Shown piece after piece: positions 23,625 to 48,967 of a DNA stretch of 64,000 bases (position 1 is its first letter; the number at the start of each line of letters is the position of its first letter). A program made the translations under genes and the position numbers. Source of the DNA: Candidatus Marinacidobacterales bacterium (GTDB lineage: Bacteria > Acidobacteriota > Vicinamibacteria > Marinacidobacterales > SMYC01); assembly GCA_965224085.1 (NCBI GenBank), contig CBDCYI010000004.1, positions 1,184,001 through 1,248,000 on the forward strand, in the 5' to 3' direction. The notes under the pieces were generated by a model. That model was not told where the DNA came from and did no database searches. It worked only from the letters and a program-made list of their open reading frames with translations.

Positions 23625-24494
23625 ATGCTCCGTGTTCTCATCTTCCTCGTCTCTCTCGGAACCCGTGCGATCCGGGCGATGTGTCGTCGCCGAGCCGGCC
23701 TCCCCTCGAGGACGCGGACCGCGCGTTCTGGGTGGCGCTCCGCCAATCCTGGCCCGGGTGGGCTAGTCGCTTGGTCATCGTCAACGCGGACACGGTCGCG
23801 CGGTGGAATCGGGATCAATTCCGACGATACTGGGCAAAGATCTCGCGGAGACGTTATCCGGGACGACCTCGAGTGGATGGCGAGATTCGCCGGCTCATCC
23901 GGACCATGGCTCAGGATGGCTGGGGCGCACCGCGTATCCACGCGGAGCTCACGAAGCTCGGATTCATCGTGTCCGAGATGACGGTGTCGCGATACTTGCC
24001 GCGGCGCCCAGCCGAGCCCGACCAAGTGAAGCGATGGATAGCGTTCTTGCGCAACCACAAGGACGACATTGCTGCGATGGATCTGTTCACGGTGCCGACG
24101 GCGTCGCTTCGGCTGCTGTACGGCTTCTTCGTCATCGAGCACGGCCGTCGGCATATCGTTCACTTCAACGCCACGTTCCATCCGACGTCCGCTTGGGTGA
24201 TGCAGCAACTGCGTGAGGCGTTTCCCTACGACACGGCGCCGAGATGCCTCATCTTTGACGGCGACGCGATCTTCAGCCCGGCGGTCGTCAAGTTCATAAG
24301 GGCCATGGGCACAAAGCCTATTCACCTCGTATCGCAGCCCTTGGCAAAACGGAACCGCCGAGCGCTAGATCGGCAGCTGTCGGCGCGAGCTCCTCGAGCA
24401 CGTCGTAGTTCTGGGCAAGCGCCATCTCGTCCGACTCGTGCGAGCTTACATCGCTTACTATCACGAGGACCGTTGCCATTTGGGCCTCGGTAAG
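23625..24494 (+). mobile_element. Degraded integrase-core (rve) transposase
   Basis: WGAPRIHAELTKLG, AMDLFTV, FFVIEHGRR, LIFDGDAIF; later SPWQNGTAER..G..RRELL and CHLGLGK in another frame; internal deletions. Confidence 0.75.
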
Positions 24495-24571
24495 GTACTT
24501 TCGAGTGAACGAACGATTTCGGTCACTCTCCGATGACCTCCGCCCACGCGGGCGGTGCCATTGCTGTCAAG
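24492..24571 (-). mobile_element. 80-bp non-autonomous IS110 mini-element (left end + right end only)
   Basis: 44/50 nt identical to IS110 left end (24787-24836) and 14/15 nt identical to its right end (26454-26468); bounded by CTT at both ends on the minus strand. Confidence 0.7.
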
Positions 24572-24722
24572 TTTTCCACGGCCTGACGGCCACCCCGAAT
24601 GAATGAAACGCGGTAGTCTCTGGAGGTGGCACCGGCTCAACACGACGCCTGAGGGAGTTCGGTTTTGACGTCACTGCCCCCAAACGCTACACCCTGAGTT
24701 TCTTATTAGTTGGGAGCGCGGA

Positions 24723-24772
24723 CCACCAGATATAGTCGTTGCTACACCTAACCTGACCACACAATATTGTGG
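24723..24772. promoter_or_regulatory. Possible tandem NrdR-box-like palindromes
   Basis: CCACCAGATATAGTCG (24723-24738) and CCACACAATATTGTGG (24757-24772) versus consensus acaCwAtATaTwGtgt (11/16 and 12/16). Confidence 0.3.
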
Positions 24773-24789
24773 TACCTCACCTCAATTTG

Positions 24790-25030
24790 ACAGCAATGGC
24801 ATCGCCCGGGCGGGCGAAGGTAATCGGAGACTGACCCTTTGAGATCTGTGGGAGGAAGTAGACTCCGATCGAGTGCAGCCGGGAGTCAAGGCCGAAGGTA
24901 CGATGGTGCTCAGTGCCCGTTTGACAGCAAGGTCTGGAGGGTTAGCGGGAGTATCCGTGGTGGCATGTCGCGAGGCATGACCCCGTTCGAAAGAATGTTT
25001 TGAATCGCCCCTCTCTCCTGGTTGCGCCGA
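24790..25030 (+). ncRNA. Candidate bridge RNA region in IS110 left end
   Basis: ~255-nt non-coding leader with hairpins (TCGCCC/GGGCGA; GACTCC/GGAGTC) upstream of a DEDD recombinase; boundaries unknown. Confidence 0.5.
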
Positions 25031-25042
25031 AAGGAGCGAGAA

Positions 25043-26431
25043 ATGGCACGTCGCGTCAGGACAAAAAGCAGTCGTCAAGCAAGACGGAAAAAATTGGAGC
25101 ACGAGCTCGACACGGTAAATCTAGATGCTGCAGGGATTGATATTGGAGCGGAGTCAATCGTGGCGGCAGTCCCGAAGGGGCGCACTCCTGAGGGCGAACA
25201 TGTCCGCACGTTTCAGAGCTTTGTATGCTCGCTGCGAGAGCTGGCCAATTGGCTGAAGGCGTGCGGCGTGTGCACGGTGGCGATGGAGTCGACCGGAGTT
25301 TATTGGATTTCACTGTACGAGTTGTTGGAAGACGAGGGATTTGAAGTCTATCTGGTCGATGCTCGCAAAGTGAAAAACGTATCTGGGCGCAAGTCAGACG
25401 TGTCGGATGCGGAGTGGCTGCAACAGCTGCATACATTCGGGCTACTCCCAAAAACCTTTCGGCCGGAATCGGCGATTTGCGAGCTAAGGGCATACACCCG
25501 CCAACGAAGCTCGCTGGTGGAGTCAGCGGCTCGCCACATTCAGCATATGCACAAAGCGCTCAACCAAATGGGGCTCCAGCTACAACACGTCCTGCGCGAC
25601 GTGACCGGAGTCACCGGCCTTGCGATCATCCGAGCGATCTTGAGAGGAGAGCGAGATCCTCGTGACCTAGCAAAACTGAGGCATGAACGTTGCCACAACG
25701 ATGAGGCCACGATCGCGAAAGCCTTAGAAGGTAACTATCGGAGCGAGCATGTTTTCGCTCTTCAACAGTCGGTGGAGTTGTACGATTTCTATCAAGAGAA
25801 AATGGAAGACTGTGACAAGCGGATCGAGAGATGCCTGTCCAAATTGGAGACCCGGCCTCAGGACGCTCGGCCTAAGCCGAAACCACGGACACGGCGAGCG
25901 CGTAGCGGCAACGGGCCGCGCTTTCCGCTCGCTGAGTCTCTATTGGGACTCACGGGGGTGGACCTAACCAGGGTTCCCGGCTTAGGTAGCTATGCCGTTC
26001 TGCAGCTCGTAGGAGAAACCGGTTGCGACATGAGCCCGTGGAAAAGTGACAAGCACTTCACCTCATGGCTAGCTCTCGCACCGAATAATAAGGAGTCCGC
26101 TGGTCGAATCTTTCGCCGGGCCACCCCAATGAGCTCCAGTCGTGCTGCAAAACTCTTTCGCCTCGCCGCGTGCGCTGTCCGCAATACCCAAACCGCGCTC
26201 GGCGCTTTCTATCGACGAATCCGATCGCGACGAGGTGCTCCAAAGGCCATCACAGCTACCGCCCGTAAAATAGCGACCATCTACTTCCGCATGCTTGCGA
26301 CTGGAGAGGAGTTCATTGAGCTCGGTCAGGACGCCTATGAAAGGCAATACCAGCAACGCCTCCTGAGTAATCTCCGACGCAAAGCTACCCGACTCGGCTT
26401 CAGCCTCGTTCCCGATCAATCCATATCATGA
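25043..26431 (+). CDS. IS110 family DEDD recombinase/transposase
   Basis: AGIDIG, AMESTGVYW, RKSDVSDAEWL, LAPNNKESAG, AITATARK; RBS AAGGAG at 25031. Confidence 0.95.
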   Translation: MARRVRTKSSRQARRKKLEHELDTVNLDAAGIDIGAESIVAAVPKGRTPEGEHVRTFQSFVCSLRELANWLKACGVCTVAMESTGVYWISLYELLEDEGFEVYLVDARKVKNVSGRKSDVSDAEWLQQLHTFGLLPKTFRPESAICELRAYTRQRSSLVESAARHIQHMHKALNQMGLQLQHVLRDVTGVTGLAIIRAILRGERDPRDLAKLRHERCHNDEATIAKALEGNYRSEHVFALQQSVELYDFYQEKMEDCDKRIERCLSKLETRPQDARPKPKPRTRRARSGNGPRFPLAESLLGLTGVDLTRVPGLGSYAVLQLVGETGCDMSPWKSDKHFTSWLALAPNNKESAGRIFRRATPMSSSRAAKLFRLAACAVRNTQTALGAFYRRIRSRRGAPKAITATARKIATIYFRMLATGEEFIELGQDAYERQYQQRLLSNLRRKATRLGFSLVPDQSIS

Positions 26432-26709
26432 AAAATGCCTTCGGCCGGGAGTGTCAGTCGAAAGTACCCAATGAACTCCTCTCCAGTCGCAAGCGTTGTG
26501 GCAACGTTCATGCCTCAGTTTTGCTAGGTCACGAGGATCTCGCTCTCCTCTCAAGATCGCTCGGATGATCGCAAGGCCGGTGACTCCGGTCACGTCGCGC
26601 AGGACGTGTTGTAGCTGGAGCCCCATTTGGTTGAGCGCTTTGTGCATATGCTGAATGTGGCGAGCCGCTGACTCCACCAGCGAGCTTCGTTGGCGGGTGT
26701 ATGCCCTTA

Positions 26710-28069
26710 GGGCCTGTTACATATTAATATTTACAATACACTGTCATTGCTGCTATCCTCTGCTGGTTGCGAGACTATACGAGGATGGCAACAGATCGAA
26801 AGGTACCAGAGTCTGAGCGTCACTGGTTGAGGGTGCTGGGGACGTTGAACGAAGCGCAAGCGCGTGTTTTTGTGGCTCAACGGGCGCTTGAAGAAGGACG
26901 CGGCGGGGTCAGTCGGCTGTCACGACTTACGGGGATGTCGCGGCCGACCATCATGAAGGGCGTGGCGGAACTCAAAGCGAAAGCGCCGATAGTTGATGAC
27001 GACAGCGCCCGAGTGCGCAAGCCTGGCGGGGGGAGAAAGCGGGTCGAGGAGTTAGACCCGAGAATCGAGCGGCAGCTGAAGAAGATCCTCGACGAAAGAA
27101 CCGCCGGCGACCCGATGAAGCATCTCAAATGGACGAACAAGTCCACGAGAGCGATGGCGGAGGAGCTTGAACGCAAAGGTCACGATGTCTCGCACGTGAC
27201 AGTTGCTCGACGCCTAGGAGAAATGGGTTACTCGCTGCAAGCTAACGTGAAGAGACTGGAAGGGGATCAGCACCCGGATCGGGACAAACAGTTTCGTTAC
27301 ATCAACAAGCAAGTAAGCAAGTTCATGCGAAGCAAGGATCCGGTCGTGAGCGTCGATACCAAGAAGAAGGAATTGATAGGAGCCTTTGAAAACAGGGGTA
27401 AAACGTGGAGGAAGAAGAAGGGCGGAGGTGAGCCGGTTCTTGTACACGACTTCCCCAGTATGGCTGAGGGCAAAGCAATTCCCTATGGGACTTACGATGT
27501 GTCCCGCGACGAAGCGCTGGTCAACGTCGGCATTACTCACGAGACTGCGGAATTCGAGGTAGAAAGCATCCGGAGATGGTGGCGCATACTCGGAAAAAAG
27601 TCTTATCCGATGGCGAAACGTCTGCTTGTTTGCGCGGACGCCGGTGGAAGCAACGGAAACCGGCTGCGAGGCTGGAAGCTCCACCTCCAAAAGCTATCGG
27701 ACCAACTGAAGATTCCCATCACCGTATGCCACTATCCACCGGGAACCAGTAAATGGAACAAAATCGAACATCGACTATTCTCCTTTGTCAGCATGAACTG
27801 GAAAGGACGGCCTCTCGTGAGCTACGAGGCGGTCGTCAATCTTATCGGCAACACCAAGACCCGAACCGGCTTGAAGGTAAAGGCCATGCTGGACAAGAAC
27901 TCCTACGAGACAGGCCAGAAGGTCAGTAACGAAGAAATGCAGGAGCTTCGACTCAAAATCCACCCCTTCCACGGCAACTGGAATTACACTCTCCATCCCC
28001 GACGTGCTTGATTGAGGGTATTAATTCTTACCGAACTCGTATTTGTAAATATTATTATGTAACAGAACC
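26710..28069 (+). mobile_element. ISAzo13-family IS, 1360 bp, with TIRs and 3-bp TSD
   Basis: 27-bp TIRs, 24/27 match (GGGCCTGTTACATATTAATATTTACAA / TTGTAAATATTATTATGTAACAGAACC); TTA duplicated at 26707-26709 and 28070-28072. Confidence 0.9.
26767..28011 (+). CDS. ISAzo13 family transposase
   Basis: GDPM..LKWT.KS, HPDRDKQF, SVDTKKKELIG, ADAGGSNG, HYPPGTSKWNKIEHRLFS, FHGNWNY. Confidence 0.95.
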   Translation: MRDYTRMATDRKVPESERHWLRVLGTLNEAQARVFVAQRALEEGRGGVSRLSRLTGMSRPTIMKGVAELKAKAPIVDDDSARVRKPGGGRKRVEELDPRIERQLKKILDERTAGDPMKHLKWTNKSTRAMAEELERKGHDVSHVTVARRLGEMGYSLQANVKRLEGDQHPDRDKQFRYINKQVSKFMRSKDPVVSVDTKKKELIGAFENRGKTWRKKKGGGEPVLVHDFPSMAEGKAIPYGTYDVSRDEALVNVGITHETAEFEVESIRRWWRILGKKSYPMAKRLLVCADAGGSNGNRLRGWKLHLQKLSDQLKIPITVCHYPPGTSKWNKIEHRLFSFVSMNWKGRPLVSYEAVVNLIGNTKTRTGLKVKAMLDKNSYETGQKVSNEEMQELRLKIHPFHGNWNYTLHPRRA

Positions 28070-28985
28070 TTAGCTCGCAAATCGCCGATTCCGGCCGAAA
28101 GGTTTTTGGGAGTAGCCCGAATGTATGCAGCTGTTGCAAGCCACTCCGCATCCGACACGTCTGACTTGCGCCCAGATACGTTTTTCACTTTGCGAGCATC
28201 GACCAGATAGACTTCAAATCCCTCGTCTTCCAACAACTCGTACAGTGGAATCCAATAAACTCCGGTCGACTCCATCGCCACCGTGCACACGCCGCACGCC
28301 TTCAGCCAATTGGCCAGCTCTCGCAGCGAGCATACAAAGCTCTGAAACGTGCGGACATGTTCGCCCTCAGGAGTGCGCCCCTTCGGGACTGCCGCCACGA
28401 TTGACTCCGCTCCAATATCAATCCCTGCAGCATCTAGATTTACCGTGTCGAGCTCGTGCTCCAATTTTTTCCGTCTTGCTTGACGACTGCTTTTTGTCCT
28501 GACGCGACGTGCCATTTCTCGCTCCTTTCGGCGCAACCAGGAGAGAGGGGCGATTCAAAACATTCTTTCGAACGGGGTCATGCCTCGCGACATGCCACCA
28601 CGGATACTCCCGCTAACCCTCCAGACCTTGCTGTCAAACGGGCACTGAGCACCATCGTACCTTCGGCCTTGACTCCCGGCTGCACTCGATCGGAGTCTAC
28701 TTCCTCCCACAGATCTCAAAGGGTCAGTCTCCGATTACCTTCGCCCGCCCGGGCGATGCCATTGCTGTCAAGTTGACGTTGCGAGCAAGCCGGCACCGCC
28801 GGATTGTCGTCTCTGCTCGAGTCAGGCGGCGCACGTGACGGCGTCCCAAGCGAGGAACGCGCGACCTCGTAGCTCTCGGTATTGTGATCCGGCGCGAGTC
28901 AGCGTTGTGCCGCTTCGCAATTGCACGCGCGCCGGATACAATCCTTACGTTAGACCGACACAACATCAAGAGAGAATATTGAGCG

Positions 28986-36518: not shown

Positions 36519-39500
36519 CTAAGGCGGCACGTCGGTCGGCGGCAAGTTTATGGTACGCCCCGGGGTCCAGGGGACACCCGCCGCATCGAGCTCTTGCTCC
36601 AGCGCCGGCAGGTCCAGCCGGACCAGGCGCTCCACTGCCGCGATCTGCTCGGTGAGCTTCTCCTGGCTGTGCCGGGTCAGCCGCTTTTGGTCGGCCGTCG
36701 GCAACGCGGTCGAGGACTCGACGTTGGCGTACAGCAATCGGACCTGTTCGGCGAGAGCTGGCGCGCCCCTCTGCTCGGCCCGGCTGCGGGTGTTCTCCTC
36801 CCCGTTGATTGCCCGTCGGACCTCCGTCAGGGCGTCGTCGATCTCCGTGAGCTGGGAATCGATGGCACCGGGAACGTCGGCCTGCGTTTGGAGCGCCCGG
36901 CGCATCCCACCAAGTCGCTCCTCGACCTCCGCGGTCGTCAACAGAATCGCGTGCACGACGCCTATCAACTGGTTGAGCGTCTGTAGCGTGTCGTGCCACG
37001 TACGGCGGTCCGCGGTGCTGATGTCGATCCACGGGTCGCCGGAAACCGCGACACTCCGGACCTGCTCCGTCTCTCCCGCCCTGAGCCGGACCTGATAGGT
37101 GCCCGGCAACACGAACGGACCCGCCAATATGCCACGGAACAACGGCGCGGAGTCTCCCTCACCGGGCTTGAACGTCAACGGGTGTCGCAAGTCCCACACC
37201 AGCCGCTGGACGCCAGCTCCGTCTGGACCCTGTGGGGCTTCCAGCCGTCGCAAAAGCTGCCCGCCTTCGTGCAGGATGTCGACCGCCACCTTCGGAGCGG
37301 ACGACGTCGACTCCATCAGCGCCGGGTTGACGTAGTAGGTGAGGATCGCTCCATCCGGGGGGTTCGGTGCCGTGTAGTGGCTGTGACCCAGACTGCGCCG
37401 GCCCCGGTTGAACTTGTGCATCTGGATGGCCGGACGCACCGACGCCAGATGAAGGTCCGATGCCAGCACCTCCTCGGAAAGCTCCTCCAGGATGGCAACG
37501 TCGTCGAGAATCCAGAAGCCCCTGCCATGGGTTCCAATCACCAGGTCGTTTTTCTGTGGCTGGATCACCATGTCATGCACCGGCACCGTCGGCATGTTGT
37601 TCTTGAGCGACACCCACTGGCCACCGCCGGTGATCGAAACGAAGACCTGAGACTCCGTGCCGACGAACAGCAGGTTGGGATTGCGCGGATGCTCGACGAT
37701 CACCCGCGTCGAGCCGAACTCGGGAAGGTCGCCGGTGATGTCGCTCCAGATGGCTCCGTAGTCCGTGCTCTTGTACACGTAGGGCAGGAAGTTCGCGTCC
37801 TTGTGGCCGTCGAATGTGGCGTAGAGCGTCCCCTCCTGGTGCTGTGACCAGGACACCCGGCTCCCGCGGGTCTTCTCCGGTATGGTCGTGGGAGTCTCCG
37901 CCCGGACCCAATCGTCGCCGTCGTTCCGGCTCACGTGAATCAGCCCATCGTCGCTCCCCACCGCCAGCAAGCCCCGGCGGATCGGCGACTCCGAAAAGGT
38001 CGTGATGTTTCCGTAGTCCGAGGTGCTCCGGTGCAGGTCGAGGGCGTCCCGGGGCTGGATCTTGCCCTGCATCGGCATGTCGAAGTAGCTGATCTGGCGT
38101 GTCAAGTCGGGGCTAATCACTTGCCAGCTGTCGCCGCGGTCCGCGCTCTTGAACACCACGTTGGCGGAGAAGTAGAGCGTCTCGTTGTCGTAGTGGGAGA
38201 TGTGTAGCGGCGACGACCAGTTCCACAGGTACATCGGCGCGTCCTCGGGATGGGCCGGCTGGATCAAGCGCCGCTCACCGGTCTCGGTGTCGAAGCGCAC
38301 CAGCCGACCGTACTGGGACTCGCTGTAGACGATGGTGGGATCCTCGGGGTCGATGCGGGCGTGAAAGCCGTCGCCGCCGACCGTGACGAACCAATCCTCG
38401 TTGGCAATGCCGTCGGTGAAGCGCGTAGCGCTCGGTCCTCCCAGCGTGTTGTTGTCCTGGGTGCCACCGTAGACGTAGTAGAAGGGCTCCCGCTGGTCGA
38501 CCGCCACCGTGTAGAACTGCATCACCGGCAGGTTCGTCACGAAGTTCCACTTCTTGGCACGATCGAAGGTGAAGTAGACGCCGCCGTCGTTACCGATCAC
38601 GATGTGGTCGGAGTTTGTCGGGTCGATCCACATCGCCCGCTGGTCGACGTGGACTTGCGCTCCCGCGAAGTCGTAGGTAAACGTCCGGCCGCCGTCCTCG
38701 GAGACATTGTTGCCGTTGCGCAACAGGTAGACGCGCTCCGGGTTGTTGGGGTCGCATCGCAGCTTGTAAGCTATCTCGCCGCTCCGCCGCTCCCAGCTCG
38801 CGCCCCGATCATCGGAGCGGTAAAGACCTTCCTCGTCCCCCTTTGCGCGGATGGCCGCGTAGATCGTGTCGGGCTGGCTGCGACAGACGGAGAGCGCGAT
38901 GCTGCCGACGTCGCCCGCGGGCAGGCCGTTTTGAAGCTCCTGCCAGGTGGCGCCGCCGTCCGTCGTCCGGTAAATGCCGCCCTCGGGGCCGCCTCCGAGG
39001 AAGCTCCAGTTGCGCCGCTCCCGCTGGAAAGCCGCCGCATAGAGCAACGCCGGATCCCGAGGATCCATCTCCACGTCGGAAACGCCCGTGTACTGGCTGA
39101 CGAAGAGTACCTTCTCCCAGGTCTCGCCGCCGTCGGTGGTTTTGAACACCCCGCGTTCCTCGTTCGCGCCCCACAAGGCTCCCATCCCCGCAACGTAAAC
39201 GATGTCGGGGTCCTCCGGATGGATCACGATCTTTCCGGTGTGCCGCGTCTCCTCGAGCCCCATGTGCTTCCAGCTCTTGCCACCGTCTTCCGACTTGTAG
39301 ACCCCGTCGCCCCAGGAGGCGCTGCGGGCATTCCAGTTTTCTCCCGACCCGAGCCACACGAGGTTGGGGTTGTCCGGTGCGACGGCAATCGCGCCGAGAG
39401 ACGCCGTCCCCCGATTCTTGAAAATCTCTTCCCAGGTGATACCCCGGTTGGTGGACTTCCAGGCCCCACCGGTCGAGGTGGCGACGTAGACGATGTCGGG

Positions 39501-39701
39501 GTTGCTCTCGACCGCGGTGAGGTCACCGATGCGGCCGCTCTTGGCAGCCGGCCCGATGGTGCGCCACTCGAGCTTGGCTAGGGTCGAGCTCAGCGCTCGG
39601 CGGCCGTCGCGCTCTTGCCCGAACGATACCGAAGGGGATACCAGCGCGGCGGTCAACAACACCGACGCCAGGTTCAATAGCGTTACCGTACGGCTCCGCA
39701 T
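36519..39701 (-). CDS. Secreted BNR/Asp-box (VPS10/sortilin-like) beta-propeller protein, putative glycosyl hydrolase
   Basis: Many S/T-x-D-G-G-x-T/S-W repeats; WRTIGP..SGRI, GGTQDN, GGDGF, GTHGRGFWILDD; helical tail. Confidence 0.85.
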   Translation of the reverse strand: MRSRTVTLLNLASVLLTAALVSPSVSFGQERDGRRALSSTLAKLEWRTIGPAAKSGRIGDLTAVESNPDIVYVATSTGGAWKSTNRGITWEEIFKNRGTASLGAIAVAPDNPNLVWLGSGENWNARSASWGDGVYKSEDGGKSWKHMGLEETRHTGKIVIHPEDPDIVYVAGMGALWGANEERGVFKTTDGGETWEKVLFVSQYTGVSDVEMDPRDPALLYAAAFQRERRNWSFLGGGPEGGIYRTTDGGATWQELQNGLPAGDVGSIALSVCRSQPDTIYAAIRAKGDEEGLYRSDDRGASWERRSGEIAYKLRCDPNNPERVYLLRNGNNVSEDGGRTFTYDFAGAQVHVDQRAMWIDPTNSDHIVIGNDGGVYFTFDRAKKWNFVTNLPVMQFYTVAVDQREPFYYVYGGTQDNNTLGGPSATRFTDGIANEDWFVTVGGDGFHARIDPEDPTIVYSESQYGRLVRFDTETGERRLIQPAHPEDAPMYLWNWSSPLHISHYDNETLYFSANVVFKSADRGDSWQVISPDLTRQISYFDMPMQGKIQPRDALDLHRSTSDYGNITTFSESPIRRGLLAVGSDDGLIHVSRNDGDDWVRAETPTTIPEKTRGSRVSWSQHQEGTLYATFDGHKDANFLPYVYKSTDYGAIWSDITGDLPEFGSTRVIVEHPRNPNLLFVGTESQVFVSITGGGQWVSLKNNMPTVPVHDMVIQPQKNDLVIGTHGRGFWILDDVAILEELSEEVLASDLHLASVRPAIQMHKFNRGRRSLGHSHYTAPNPPDGAILTYYVNPALMESTSSAPKVAVDILHEGGQLLRRLEAPQGPDGAGVQRLVWDLRHPLTFKPGEGDSAPLFRGILAGPFVLPGTYQVRLRAGETEQVRSVAVSGDPWIDISTADRRTWHDTLQTLNQLIGVVHAILLTTAEVEERLGGMRRALQTQADVPGAIDSQLTEIDDALTEVRRAINGEENTRSRAEQRGAPALAEQVRLLYANVESSTALPTADQKRLTRHSQEKLTEQIAAVERLVRLDLPALEQELDAAGVPWTPGRTINLPPTDVPP

Positions 39702-39722
39702 TTTTCCTGTCCTTCCATAACG

Positions 39723-42700
39723 CTACCTGCCGGATGGACGCGAAGACGTCGACGGCAGGCGGATAGGACGCCCTGGCGTCCATCGGACGCCGGCCCCGTC
39801 GAGCTGTTGCTCGAGTGCCGGCAGCTTGTTGCTCACCAGACGATCGACAGAGGCGATTTGCTCGCCGAGCTCCTCGTGGCTGCGCCGGGTCAGCTGGCGC
39901 TGCTCGACGGTGGGGAGCGACGTGGCCGCCTCGACGGCGAAATAGAGCTGACTCACCCGTCTCGCCAGCGGTGGCGCTCCGGGAAGGGTGGCGCCGCCCG
40001 TCTCCTCGCCCTCCAGCGTTCGGAGCATCGTTTCGACGTCGTTCGCGATCTCATCGATGGCATCGTGAATCGAGCCGGAGACGTCTCCATGGGCCGCGAT
40101 TGCCTCACGGATCCCTTTGAGCTTCTCCTCAACCTCGCGGGTCGAGCGCACCAGCGCCCTCGAGGTCGCCATCATCTGGTTGAGCGCCTGAGCGGTGTCG
40201 TGCCACACGCGGCGATCCTCGACACTGATCGTGATGGCGGGATCCCCCGCGACCTCGATGCGTCTCGCCTGTTCGGCATCACCGACCCGGAGCCGTACCT
40301 GGTACGTTCCCAGCAGCACGAAGGGCCCTCTCGGCTGGCCGCGGAAAAACGGAACCGAATCGTCTTCGTCGGGCTCGTACGACAACGGATGCCTCAGATC
40401 CCATACCAGCCGCTTCATGCCGGTGCCCTTCGCACCTTGCGGCGGATCCAGCCGGCGAACGAGCCCACCGTCACCATCCAGGATGTCGAGTTCGATCCGC
40501 GGAGCTCCACCCTCGGAGCCGTTGTCGGTGGACTCCGTTGCCACCTCCATCATCGATGGGTTCACGTAGTAGGCGAGGATCGCCCCTTCGGGAGGGTTCG
40601 GGGCGACGTAGCGCGTGTGGCCCATGCTTCTGCGGCGGCTGAACTTGTGCAACTGGGTCGCGGGCTGAAGGGATGCGAGGTGGAAGTCCGACGCCAGAAC
40701 GTCCTCGGAAAGCTCTTCGAGCAGGGTGATATCTTCGAGGATGAAGAACCCCCTTCCGTGAGTGGCGATCACGAGGTCGTTCTTCTTCGGCTGGATCACC
40801 ATATCGTGCACCGGTACCGTTGGGAGGCCTTCCTTCAAACGTACCCAGTTCTCGCCTCCGTTGATCGTCACGAAGGCCGCGAACTCCGTGCCCACGAACA
40901 GCAGGTTCGCGTTGCGGGGGTGCTCGATGATCACCCGCACCGGGCCGAACTCCGGTAAATCTCCCGTGATGTTGCTCCAAGTCGCCCCGTAGTCGGTGCT
41001 CTTGTACGCATACGGTAAGAAATTGTTGTCCTTGTGGCCCTCGAAGGTAGAATAGAGCGTTCCCTCGGCGTGGTTCGACCACACGACCCGGCTCACGAAC
41101 GTCATCTCCGGGACCGTCTCCGGGATCTCCGCCGCCACCCAGTTGCCACCGTCGTCGCGGGTGATGTGGATCAATCCGTCGTCGGTCCCTACCGCCAGGA
41201 GCCCCTGTTTCAGGCGCGACTCCGAGAACATGGTGATGTTGCCGTAGTCCGAGGTGGCCCGGTGCAGCATGAACGCGTCCCGCGGCTGCACTTTGCCCTG
41301 CAGCGGCAAATCGAAGTGACTCGTCTGCCGGGTCAAGTCGGGGCTGATCACGTTCCAGCTGTCACCACGGTCGGGACTCTTGAACACCACGTTGGCGGAG
41401 AAGTAGATCGATTTGTTGTCGTAGTGCGAGATATGCACCGGCGACGACCAGTTCCAACGATACTTGCTGCCGTCGTCCGGCTGCGCCGGCTGGATGAGCT
41501 TCCCCTCACCCGTCACCGTATCGAAGCGGAGCAGACGCCCGTACTGGGATTCGGTATAGACGATGGTGGGATCCTCTGGGTCGATCTGCACGTAGAAGCC
41601 GTCGCCGCCGGAGGTCCGGTACCAGTCCGCGTTGGTAATGCCGTCGGTGTAGCGCGTACCGCTCGGGCCGCCCATCGAGCCGTTGTCCTGCGTTCCCCCG
41701 TAGACGTAGTAGAAGGGTTCCTGGAGGTCGACGGCGACCGTGTAGAACGTGCTCACCGGCAGGTTCTCGGCGAACTCCCACGTTTCGCCGCCGTTGTCGG
41801 TGATGTAGAAGCCGCCATCGTTGCCGATGAGGATGTGCTTCGAATCGGCGGGATCGATCCACATAGCTTGCTGGTCGCTGTGGACGGTTCTGTCCTTGTA
41901 GGGCCGGGTGAGGGTCCTGCCACCGTCCTCCGACACGCCGTCCTCGTCGGTGACCAGGTAGACGCGCTCCGCATTGCTGGGATCACAGCGGACTTTGCTG
42001 GACGAGGCCTCGTTGACGCGCTCCCAGCTCGCGCCCCGGTCGTCCGATCGGTAGAGCCCCTGCTCGTCCTCTCCCGCCGTGATGCTCGCATAGACGCGGT
42101 CGGGCATGCTGCGGCACACCGAAAGGCCGATCTTCCCCAGATCTCCCTTTGGCAGGCCGTTGGTCAGCCGCACCCAGCGCTCGCCCCCGTCGGTGCTTCG
42201 GTAGATCCCACTCTCCGGACCCCCGCCCAGAAAGCTCCATACCCGCCGCTCCCGTTGAAACGCGGCCGCATACAGCCAGTCCGGATTCCGAGGATCCATT
42301 GCCAGATCCACGACTCCGGTGTGCGGGCTCACGTAGAGCACCTTCTCCCAGCTGGCACCCCCATCCGTGGTCTTGAAGACACCGCGCTCCTCGTTTGCTC
42401 CCCACAACGCGCCACCGCCCGCCACGTACACGGTGTCCGGGTCCTCAGGATGAATGAGGATCTGACCGACGTGTCGGGTCTCTTCCAGTCCCATGTGCTT
42501 CCACGTCTTGCCACCGTCTTCCGACTTGTACACGCCGTCGCCCCACGAAACGCTTCGCCAGTTCCACGTTTCCCCCGAACCCAACCACAGCAGGTTCGGG
42601 TTCGAGGGTGCGATCGCCACCGAGCCCAGGGATGCCGTGCCGCGGTTCTCGAAGATCGGCTTCCAGGTAGAACCGCGATCCATGGATTTCCACAGCCCGC

Positions 42701-46910: not shown

Positions 46911-47945
46911 ATGAAAGATACGACGATCGCTGTGGATCTTGCAAAGAACGTCTTCGAGATTGCCATCTCGCGCGAAGCGGGGAAGGTGTCCAAGCAACTC
47001 CGTGTGAGTCGACCCAAGTTGGTGTCGTTTTTTGCGAAACAGAGCGCTGCCACCGTGCTTCTCGAAGCCTGCGGCTCGGCTCACTTCTGGGCAAGGACGT
47101 TGCGACGGTTGGGACACGACGTCGTCCTGCTCCCACCTCACCTCGTAAGGCCGTATCGACGCGGGAGCAAGAACGACCGCGCGGACACCAAAGCTTTGCT
47201 CGAGGCTTACCGGAACGAGGAGATTCTTTCGGTGCCCATCAAGTCCGTGCGCCAGCACACCCTCGCCGCGCTCCATCGCCTACGCTCAGGATGGCTCTCC
47301 ACACGGACCGCACGCATCAATGCCGTACGCGGGGTCCTGCGCGAGCTCGGACTCTTCATCCCCAAGGGCGCTCACTTCGTCGTGCCCGCCATCTCCGAGC
47401 TCGTCGAAGACGCTGATTCTGATTTGCCCGACGTGCTCCGTCCGCACCTGCGTGATGCGTGCTCCGAGATTCGAGAGCTCAAGGACAAGTGCGCTGGCAT
47501 CGAGCACGAGCTCAAGGCGCTCACCAAGCAGCTTCCTGAGGTGCAACGACTTCTCACCATTCCCGGCATCGGACTTCTGACCGCGACCGCCATCGTCGGC
47601 TTCGTTGGGGATCTGCGCCGCTTCCCATCGGGACGCCGCTTCTCGAGTTACCTCGGCCTCGTTCCCAAAGAGAACTCCAGTGGTGACATTCGCCGCCTCG
47701 GGCGCATCACCAAGCGTGGCGACTCCTACCTCCGTACGCTCCTCACGCAGGGCGGACGCGCCGTGCTCCGAGCGGCCAACGTCAGCAAGAGCCCGCCCGA
47801 CAAGCTCCGCGCCTGGGCGCGGAAGCTCCACCGCTCGCGGGGACACAACAAAGCCGCGATTGCTGTCGCCAACAAACTCGCCCGGATAGTCTGGGCCGTC
47901 TCCACCCGCGAGAGTGAATTCCAGTCGGTGCCCGCGGCCGCATAG
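46911..47945 (+). CDS. IS110 (IS1111 group) DEDD recombinase
   Basis: AVDLAKNVF, LEACG.AH.W.R, KNDRAD, IPGIG, YLGLVP..NSSG, KRGDSYLR, AVANKLARI; RBS AGGAGG. Confidence 0.95.
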   Translation: MKDTTIAVDLAKNVFEIAISREAGKVSKQLRVSRPKLVSFFAKQSAATVLLEACGSAHFWARTLRRLGHDVVLLPPHLVRPYRRGSKNDRADTKALLEAYRNEEILSVPIKSVRQHTLAALHRLRSGWLSTRTARINAVRGVLRELGLFIPKGAHFVVPAISELVEDADSDLPDVLRPHLRDACSEIRELKDKCAGIEHELKALTKQLPEVQRLLTIPGIGLLTATAIVGFVGDLRRFPSGRRFSSYLGLVPKENSSGDIRRLGRITKRGDSYLRTLLTQGGRAVLRAANVSKSPPDKLRAWARKLHRSRGHNKAAIAVANKLARIVWAVSTRESEFQSVPAAA

Positions 47946-47989
47946 AGGCTCCACTTTCGTGTTTTCCTTCTTCCCTTCCAACAGAGGCT

Positions 47990-48175
47990 GCGACGATACC
48001 CATCCAACTGATGGCGTACCGGTCGGACCGGCGCGGGGTCAAGCCGATAGCAACACTGGCCCTCAGAGGTCGCTCAAAGTGATTGGCTCCTCGCGCGCGG
48101 ATTTTCCGTCATGGCCCGGAGCACCCAAGACGCTCCTCACTGAGGCCGTAGATATGTTTGCAGTCTGACCCACTC
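47990..48175 (+). ncRNA. Candidate bridge/seek RNA in the IS1111 3' non-coding region (second, slightly deleted copy at ~48635-48815)
   Basis: Four short segments match the reconstructed target and donor (see findings); position downstream of the recombinase is typical of the IS1111 group. Confidence 0.7.
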
Positions 48176-48215
48176 GTCACCGATTTGGACGAGCAGCTCT
48201 GAGGAAGACTTTTTT

Positions 48216-48921
48216 GAACGAGGAGATTCTTTCGGTGCCCATCAAGTCCGTGCGCCAGCACACCCTCGCCGCGCTCCATCGCCTGAGGATGGCTCTCCAC
48301 ACGGACCCACGCATCAATGCCGTACGCGGGATCCTGCGCGAGCTCGGACTCTTCATCCCCAAGGGCGCTCACTTCGTCGTGCCCGCCATCTCCGAGCTCG
48401 TCGAAGACGCTGAGATTTGCCCGACGTGCTCCGTCCGCACCTGCGTGATGCGTGCTCCGAGATTCGAGAGCTCAAGGACAAGTGCGCTGGTCGAGCACGA
48501 GCTCAATATGAGGAAGACTTTTTTGAGAAAGGTGTTGATTGAGGAGTCCAGATATGACCCACTCGTCACCGATTTGGACGAGCAGCTCTGAGGCTCCACT
48601 TTCGTGTTTTCCTTCTTCCCTTCCAACAGAGGCTGCGACGATACCCATCCAACTGATGGCGTACCGGTCGGACCGGCGCGGGGTCAAGCCGATAGCAACA
48701 CTTCAGAGGTCGCTCAAAGTGATTGGCTCCTCGCGCGCGGATTTTCCGTCATGGCCCGGAGCACCCAAGACGCTCCTCACTGAGGCCGTAGATATGTTTG
48801 CAGTCTGACCCACTCGTCACCGATTTGGACGAGCAGCTCTGAGGAAGACTTTTTTGAGAAAGGTGTTGATTGAGGAGTCCTGAGGAAGACTTTTTTGAGA
48901 AAGGTGTTGATTGAGGAGTCC
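48216..48921 (+). repeat. Degenerate re-copies of transposase interior, NCR and a 41-bp right-end unit
   Basis: ~48216-48506 copies ~47213-47516 with small deletions; TGAGGAAGACTTTTTTGAGAAAGGTGTTGATTGAGGAGTCC at 48509, 48840 and 48881. Confidence 0.9.
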
Positions 48922-48967
48922 AGATATGATGCTACGGCGGTTGCGTTTTAGGCTTTTGTTCGATTGT

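Follow-up and report, generated by a model that had tools for sequence, protein, structure and literature searches.

The subject of this analysis is a 64-bp miniature element without an open reading frame (ORF), located on the minus strand at 24500-24563 of a 64,000-nucleotide stretch of a Candidatus Marinacidobacterales bacterium (GenBank assembly GCA_965224085.1, contig CBDCYI010000004.1, positions 1,184,001 to 1,248,000). This whole stretch is called the window, and coordinates given without a contig name refer to it. We consider it fairly probable that the miniature is a non-autonomous derivative of an insertion sequence (IS) of the IS110/IS1111 type, which would be moved by the recombinase and guide RNA of a full-length copy and would in addition spread passively with IS6-family hosts. 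A preliminary description of the window had reported an 80-bp IS110 mini-element at 24492-24571 and had proposed that a bridge recombinase mobilises it in trans. The sequence is present there on the minus strand as described, although the limits of the element had to be redrawn.

The first ∼50 nt of the 80-mer correspond, as had been claimed, to the left ends of two IS110-type copies in the window (24784-24836 and 28722-28774; 87-89% identity over 53 nt, or 6 mismatches in 48-50 nt when counted by hand), and its last ∼15 nt correspond to the right end of the full element, ...TCAGTCGAAAGTACC, with one mismatch. None of 100 shuffles of the window contained a chance match to the 51-mer. We also agree that the recombinase and most of the leader are lost: the miniature has neither an ORF nor either of the two guide loops described below. 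It is composed of nt 1-43 of the left end, a linker of ∼10 nt and 11 nt of the right end (13 nt with the copy of the AG core). In the left 43 nt the donor arm CAATGGCA is accompanied by a hairpin and by one of the two arms of a subterminal repeat; the other arm is in the right 13 nt, together with the donor arm TCGAA followed by AG. The core-adjacent bases CAATGGCA and TCGAAAG are the same in the miniature and in the resident full element, in which the linker has no counterpart.

On the minus strand 24492-24571 reads CTTGACAG-CAATGG...TCGAAAG-TACCTT. Empty IS6-type ends read ...TTGACAG|TACC and occupied ones ...TTGACAG[CAATGG...TCGAAAG]TACC, and therefore the inserted unit is 64 bp for the miniature, or 1669 bp for the full element, plus one copy of the AG core. 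The left-hand TTGACAG and the right-hand TACC, which had been included in the element, belong to the inverted repeat of the target; 12 of the 80 nt originally assigned to the element are target sequence. The CT(T) core was not supported as proposed. On the plus strand of the window the core does read CT, but at positions other than the CTT initially chosen, and on the element strand it is AG. A CTT or CT beside TTGACAG was considered as the core and dropped on comparison with the empty sites. The flanking CTTs are coincidental: TTGACAG is preceded by C in 35, by T in 20 and by G in 3 of 58 copies, and the bases after TACC vary freely. Next to the right end of the miniature the core copy is the CT at 24498-24499 of the plus strand, as identified by the comparison of empty and occupied sites. 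CTGTCAAG (24564-24571, plus strand) consists of the second CT copy (24564-24565) and the inner part of an IS6-like inverted repeat.

The preliminary description had suggested a BLASTn search for further copies and for empty sites, and both were found. With the 80-mer as query we obtained 33 matches in the genome of the window (G000; 6.87 Mb in 12 contigs). Twenty of them span at least 60 nt, namely 19 full-length copies with 95-100% identity and one degenerate copy, and there are truncated pieces besides. Empty target sites exist at IS6-type ends. Across the 41 genomes studied the miniature is present in nine including G000, i.e. in 8 of the 40 related genomes; these tallies include genome G027, which has no miniature and only distant relatives of the recombinase. 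A further 40 copies were taken from G010, G012, G016, G025 and G033. The parsed set of 58 copies consists of the 19 from G000 and 39 from elsewhere; one copy of 67 nt lies outside the pattern. All 58 are 66 bp long including one core copy and agree in position and orientation. Their left contexts form 17 clusters at the threshold used, with at least 10 clearly different host repeats, and their right flanks form 50 clusters. The sequences themselves vary little (11 variable positions in 58 copies, with two singletons in the stem), too little for a test of stem covariation. One of the truncated copies (G000:C4:52153) carries the segment of the second hairpin inverted relative to the right end.

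With these counts over six genomes the earlier label MITE-like (after miniature inverted-repeat transposable element) is appropriate for a multicopy, non-coding IS110-type derivative that is no one-off scar. Classical bacterial MITEs are short, non-coding, multicopy internal-deletion derivatives of IS whose transposase is supplied in trans. The 64-mer is likewise short, non-coding and multicopy, has ends from an autonomous IS and would depend on a transposase supplied in trans. It has no terminal inverted repeats, and no target-site duplication flanks it beyond the 2-nt core. As its inverted repeat is subterminal and asymmetric and only the 2-nt core is duplicated, we call it MITE-like and not a classical MITE. 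Unlike classical MITEs it also inserts site-specifically, and its insertion would be RNA-guided and would require the guide RNA in trans as well.

Most copies of the miniature share a left flank, an 806-bp repeat which we call X. X has the features of an IS6-family element: a DDE transposase (NF033587 with 213.5 bits at a cut-off of 125, and PF13610), a length of ∼0.8 kb and terminal inverted repeats, its ends reading GGTATTGTCAAGTTGA... and ...TCAATTTGACAGTACC. Intact IS6-family ends read GGTA[T/C]TGTCAA.... Empty right ends of X read ...TTTGACAGTACC, and occupied right ends read ...TTTGACAG[CAATGG...TCGAAAG]TACC, whether the insert is the miniature or the full element. Both thus occupy a single position, in a single orientation, inside the terminal inverted repeat, between ...TTGAC-AG and TACC and with AG on both sides. 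Among the X right ends of G000 we counted 14 with the miniature, three with the full element, seven empty with G at the core position, three empty with A and one hybrid, so that ∼70% of the susceptible ends are occupied. All 29 X left ends of G000 are empty and read ...ACAATACC (...CTTGACAATACC). Repeat ends with A instead of G at the core position were never found occupied. The CTTGACAG ends of other elements are occupied, and the discriminating base is therefore the G of the core.

The states of X can also be compared between otherwise identical copies. In G000 identical X haplotypes occur in three states, empty or occupied by either the miniature or the full element, and a variant of the miniature with a GTGC loop occurs on four X haplotypes, one of which is ∼2.4% diverged. 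Across genera the sequences of X and the miniature are 95-100% identical. An insertion 4 bp from the tip of an IS6 element presumably disables that end, judging from what is generally known of IS6/IS26 ends, and IS6-family ends are probably inactivated by the insertions of the guide-RNA elements. IS6-family elements generate target-site duplications of 8 bp. For X we found no matching flanks in any of the 23 copies with both flanks available, as might be expected if copies have recombined extensively or undergone cointegrate-type rearrangements in this IS-rich genome.

The ends of the miniature are structured. Its predicted fold consists of two hairpins (z = −4.2, with none of 200 shuffles as stable). 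Hairpin 1 (24540-24555, minus strand) reads CCGCCC-GCGT-GGGCGG compared to TCGCCC-GGGC-GGGCGA in the full element; the covariation at the outer pair, C-G versus T-A, which had been pointed out before, is confirmed, and distant relatives have the hairpin as well. In all nine elements considered (the miniature, the first full copy and seven distant relatives) a hairpin starts 7-10 nt into the left end. The subterminal inverted repeat is formed in the miniature by a left arm GAGTGA (24523-24528) and a right arm TCACTC (24503-24508), both on the minus strand, corresponding to positions 36-41 and 56-61 of 66; the right arm is 5 nt, core included, away from the end of the element. In the full element the left arm reads GACTGAC. 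We observed such a repeat with arms of 6-10 nt in 8 of 8 elements (the first full copy, six relatives and the miniature), pairing positions 33-47 of the left end with a site 4-6 nt from the right end, with sequences that differ at fixed positions. Shuffled right-end tails reached the observed length of complementarity in 0 to 56 of 500 trials per element. The break points of the miniature lie just inside the arms of this repeat. All six left-end differences between the miniature and the full element are neutral to the structure or improve it: two make up the compensatory change from T-A to C-G, two are in the loop, one creates a new G-C pair that extends the stem and one is a change in the repeat arm. 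This last one, C to G in the left arm, has a compensating G-to-C counterpart in the right arm.

The full-length element can be described from its first copy in the window, which we refer to as copy 1 (24794-26464, plus strand; 1669 bp plus the AG core at 26463-26464) and which is followed by the repeat tip TACC (26465-26468, plus strand). Its recombinase ORF (25043-26431, plus strand) encodes 462 amino acids with an N-terminal DEDD (RuvC-like) domain (DEDD_Tnp_IS110, PF01548, 88 bits) and a C-terminal Transposase_20 domain (PF02371, 34.7 bits), and it matches NF033542, 'IS110 family RNA-guided transposase', with 257.9 bits at a cut-off of 140. As is typical of IS110 elements, insertion is site-specific, with a short core at both junctions and no long target duplication. 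We found 9 left and 11 right junctions of the full element in G000 and seven intact ORFs of 462 amino acids.

The leader upstream of this ORF is predicted to encode a guide RNA with two loops. A candidate target-binding loop at 24897-24930 (plus strand) begins with GGTAC (24897-24901), a candidate right-target guide complementary to G+TACC, and contains TTTGACAG (24920-24927), identical to the left target and core, followed by CAA (24928-24930), the first 3 nt of the element; the left-target match is thus 11 nt long in all. The candidate donor guide TTCGAAAG (24986-24993, plus strand) matches the right end and core in 7 of 8 nt, both for the full element (GTCGAAAG) and for the miniature (CTCGAAAG). 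The candidate guides are on the 3' side of their loops. All guide motifs lie upstream of the ORF start at 25043, and the stop codon is followed by only 33 nt before the element ends. Two motifs of the form CCCG+6 nt+AG+3 nt, ∼65 nt apart, are present in copy 1 and in most of its relatives, the distant ones of which are at most 53% identical in protein sequence. For 7 of 17 elements the element's own first guide recurs 121-141 nt upstream, compared to 22 of 272 cases when guides are swapped between elements. The right end repeats the element's own second guide in 13 of 17 elements (one of them, L011, from a wrongly picked motif), compared to 14 of 272 swapped cases. For the relatives L011 and L018 no right-target guide could be assigned with confidence. 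The multi-copy relatives L011-16 and L018-27 have their junctions at ...CTGAG|, again with an AG core.

A scan of 24300-26600 against Rfam (E ≤ 1) returned one chance match to a long non-coding RNA and no bridge-RNA family, and a promoter and terminator scan of 24450-25100 gave no site of either kind; hairpin 1 is not a canonical terminator. Of 22 public runs, all kept as assembled contigs, two RNA and two other runs were compared with the window. Contigs of the RNA libraries cover parts of the copy-1 leader at a depth of 2-3, too little to show transcription. A separate observation concerns the elements L011-L027, which come from metagenome-assembled genomes of Acidobacteriaceae: these IS110-type elements insert at ...TGTCAT[C/T]CTGAG|, apparently a dispersed short repeat, and their guide motifs ATCCTGAG and TTTCTGAG match this insertion site.

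The miniature would then move as follows. One leader loop, with TTTGACAG+CAA for the left target, the core and the first element bases and with GGTAC as right-target complement, would specify the IS6 end, and the other loop, with TTCGAAAG, would specify the right end and core. The recombinase and guide RNA supplied by a full copy would recognise the target as well as the donor arms that the miniature has kept, and the miniature would be excised or copied and then re-inserted. The circle junction expected from such a cycle is ...CTCGAAAG|CAATGGCACC... (TCGAAAG|CAATGG). The helper may be the resident copy in G000 and G021 or a closer parent outside the sample, and copies would also be carried passively as their IS6-type hosts move or pass between genomes. 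As the miniature still has its donor-arm sequences, there is a plausible mechanism by which the resident recombinase could move it in trans. Published statements are consistent with such movement: excision of IS621 depends on donor-arm recognition, which is said to suffice (10.64898/2026.08.31.748434), cargo between IS ends moves once transposase and seekRNA are supplied (PMC11187229) and a 22-bp donor was functional with the guide RNA in trans (PMC11208160).

A number of observations weigh against this account. An intact cognate element is present in the assemblies of only two of the nine genomes with the miniature, G000 with seven intact ORFs and G021 with six, and the cognate leader is found at E ≤ 1e-20 in these two only. 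G003 and G002 each carry one truncated copy, G012 and G025 have no match at E ≤ 1e-30, and G010, G033 and G016 have only relatives of at most 51% identity. In the loci examined these, like the ∼50% identical relatives in G018 and other genomes, have neither matching junctions nor matching guides. The exact signature CCG-N-TTGACAG-CAA does not occur in G002, G003, G010, G012 or G016, where matches with one mismatch are at control level. Since 7 of 9 genomes with the miniature lack an intact cognate element, most copies are orphans today and passive spread with IS6-type hosts must contribute. Some copies share both of their flanks and have clearly been duplicated within larger units (L137/L138, L141/L142 and L154/L156-158). 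Within copy 1, a search by eye, allowing G-U pairs, for the complement of AG+CAATGG found no donor-arm guide for the left end in the leader, and the candidate right-target guide is as short as 5 nt. The hairpins of single relatives are individually not significant, with 0 to 159 of 300 shuffles being as stable. Finally, given six differences in ∼48 nt of the left end and the differing repeat arms, the resident full element is probably not the direct parent of the miniature.

The last point leads to an alternative in which the miniature is moved by a different, closer IS110-type parent outside the sampled genomes and not by the resident full copies. The ∼12% divergence of the left ends, the arms GAGTGA versus GACTGAC and the linker without a resident counterpart would all be explained by such a parent. 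However, no left-end-only match with more than 89% identity to the miniature exists in the 41 genomes, and in the core-adjacent CAATGGCA and TCGAAAG the miniature does not differ from the resident element. We regard this parent as possible though doubtful. Somewhat less likely again is a pure hitchhiker, inserted once or a few times long ago, spreading now only with IS6-type hosts or larger blocks and no longer moved by a bridge recombinase. The scarcity of intact cognate elements fits this explanation, as do the 13 of 19 G000 copies that reside in the single host X, the block duplications and the near identity of X and miniature across genera. What speaks against it is the diversity of left contexts, the occurrence of identical X haplotypes in all three states together with the spread of one miniature variant over four X haplotypes, and the disabling of the IS6 end that would be expected from an insertion 4 bp from its tip.

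The two remaining explanations would remove the miniature from the mobile IS110 derivatives. Its small size, and nothing further, is compatible with a one-off deletion scar of a full copy at 24492-24571, which the preliminary description had named as the consequence of a single copy without an empty allele. The 19 full copies in G000 and the copies in eight other genomes, with the same break points and diagnostic substitutions, rule out that case and make a scar here extremely improbable. A repetitive extragenic palindromic (REP)-like hairpin repeat, or an intrinsic variant of the IS6 repeat unrelated to IS110, would resemble the full element only through the shared target. The construction from two hairpins and the 12 target bases among the 80 nt are in line with this idea, but the likeness to the full element continues beyond the target, for 43 nt at the left end and for 13 nt at the right end. 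The miniature also shares its insertion point, orientation and core with the full element, and the hairpin and subterminal repeat have the positions seen in seven full-length relatives, leaving an origin of this kind very unlikely. The trans-mobilised IS110/IS1111-type derivative with additional passive spread stays the reading we prefer.

Some IS6-type ends have a hybrid form, ...CAA[T/C]T[T/C]GAAAGTACC. We found two in G000 (G000:C4:1695361 and G000:C9:841555), reading ...CAATTCGAAAGTACC, in a copy of X that is 99.9% identical to the reference, and ...CAATTTGAAAGTACC. Four more (L182-L185; CAACT[T/C]GAAAGTACC) in recognisable IS6-type end contexts come from G002, G010 and G012. A control search with the reversed pattern gave one match. 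The hybrid ends combine the 8-mer of the left junction, i.e. of the target, with the 8-mer of the right end, two sequences that share 6 of 8 bases. They may be excision footprints, left by an off-centre crossover or by heteroduplex repair; the hybrid ends with a single change may alternatively have arisen by point mutation.

In the window the miniature is one of several insertions into an IS6-like remnant of ∼100 bp, which reads GGTA-CT-GTCAAG ... CACCTCAATTTGAC-AG-TACC. The miniature lies in its left repeat (GGTA-CT-GTCAAG-TTGGGAG on the plus strand), the outer 4 nt of which, the tip GGTA, are at 24494-24497. The earlier remark that the element sits where rve homology ends is correct in that a broken rve-type gene is cut off at ∼24493, but this position is incidental; it is the tip of the IS6-like repeat that cuts the gene off. 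This rve-type integrase gene (23681-24493) is frameshifted, contains an in-frame stop and is truncated by the remnant at the repeat tip. A second miniature, mini-Y (24572-24707, plus strand; 136 bp), is inserted 6 bp further into the same repeat, between AG core copies at 24570-24571 and 24708-24709. Its parent Y is a different IS110-type element of ∼1.49 kb, encoding a 428-amino-acid protein that is 37% identical to the copy-1 recombinase. G000 has ∼13 copies of mini-Y (∼146 bp) and ∼8 full Y elements (two ends ∼1.4 kb apart). The leader of Y contains the motif CCCG-TTGTCAAG-TTT, which equals the left junction of Y, TTGTCAAG|TTT, and follows the same guide rule.

The body of the remnant (24710-24785) and its inner right inverted repeat TTTGACAG follow (together 24710-24793, plus strand; AG core at 24792-24793), and this other repeat carries copy 1. 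Beyond copy 1 lies a broken second IS110-type copy on the minus strand (26469-28766), preserved in the pieces 26469-26710 and 28068-28764 with an internal deletion. Its left end adjoins an X-like IS6 inverted repeat, CT-GTCAAGTTGACG, from 28765 on, and it is interrupted by an ISAzo13-type IS (∼26706-28073) with a DDE_Tnp_ISAZ013 protein of 414 amino acids and inverted repeats of ∼31 bp. Contigs of the public runs break at repeat borders (24492/3, 24521, 24565, 24710-14, 24780/1 and 26469). One X5 contig skips 24570-24707 and corresponds to an empty mini-Y site, with only 21 nt on one side. Two further observations concern other parts of the window. A dense cluster of direct repeats occupies 47192-48929 (families D3-D10, with units of 39-178 nt that are 88-100% identical), and at 37394-42318 two segments of ∼1.7 kb, 3231 bp apart and 70-73% identical, look like tandem paralogues.

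Site choice inside the inverted repeat of another mobile element has a known parallel: IS4321 and IS5075, IS with a DEDD recombinase and subterminal inverted repeats, reportedly insert at a fixed site and in fixed orientation inside such a terminal repeat. In comparison, the host repeat here is of the IS6 type and not of the Tn21 type, the guide region is upstream of the recombinase gene, and a miniature is present. Among the better characterised systems, IS621 combines a DEDD recombinase with an upstream leader whose two loops carry target and donor guides (PMC11208160, PMC11208158, PMC13626964). The element described here resembles it in the predicted two-loop upstream leader, the 2-nt core at both junctions and the 'handshake' matches of 2-3 nt (PMC11208160). 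It differs in the core, which in recombinase-sense orientation is AG and not CT, in the size of the recombinase (462 versus 326 amino acids), apparently in the guide order, with the guides here on the 3' side, and in its conserved left-end hairpin and subterminal inverted repeat. For IS621 a 22-bp donor was enough (PMC11208160). Subterminal inverted repeats define the IS1111 subgroup, in which the guide region is usually downstream of the recombinase gene and the guide order of the seekRNAs is reversed (PMC11187229). Our elements share these repeats, with 6-10-nt arms in 8 of 8 cases, and have the guide region upstream.

A MITE-like IS110 derivative is already in print: MITEPpu9, associated with the ssr9 module of ISPpu9, an IS110-family element of Pseudomonas putida (PMC12288879). 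It is likewise non-autonomous, with IS110-like ends and several copies, and movement by a transposase supplied in trans was proposed for it (PMC12288879). In contrast to the 64-mer, MITEPpu9 has a small RNA gene and REP targets, and its minicircles were shown experimentally (PMC12288879). The 64-mer has no recognisable RNA gene, targets IS6-type ends, has ∼20 copies per genome, occurs in 9 of 41 genomes and is known from sequence alone. The library searched yielded no report of an IS110-type miniature as small as this one, or of an IS110-type element that targets the ends of IS6 elements. As non-autonomous derivatives of IS110 elements have been proposed before (MITEPpu9, 2025) and the targeting of inverted repeats by the IS110 family is known, the advance is incremental.

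Bridge recombinases of the IS110 type are under development as programmable genome-writing tools, for which the cis-requirements of the donor are a practical question. The 64-bp natural derivative keeps little beyond the arms flanking the core, the hairpin and the complementary subterminal arms and offers a testable minimal donor for its clade; it hints at structural donor requirements beyond those described for IS621 in the available parts of PMC11208160. Tentatively, and with less confidence than we have in the trans-mobilised derivative itself, the miniature may be read as the natural 'minimal donor' of a distinct bridge/seekRNA clade, characterised by the AG core, the upstream leader, guides on the 3' side of the loops and enzymes of 462 amino acids, together with hyperparasitism of IS6 ends. 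If so, the clade would require folded or paired donor DNA (or RNA) in cis, a demand that does not belong to the current view of IS621 and that would agree with a circular intermediate in single-stranded form. The insertions document a parasitism of transposons on transposons: two unrelated guide-RNA elements and the miniature of each split IS6-family ends specifically and use them as safe landing sites that multiply by themselves. On the tentative reading they would be hyperparasites that disable the IS6 family across several genera.

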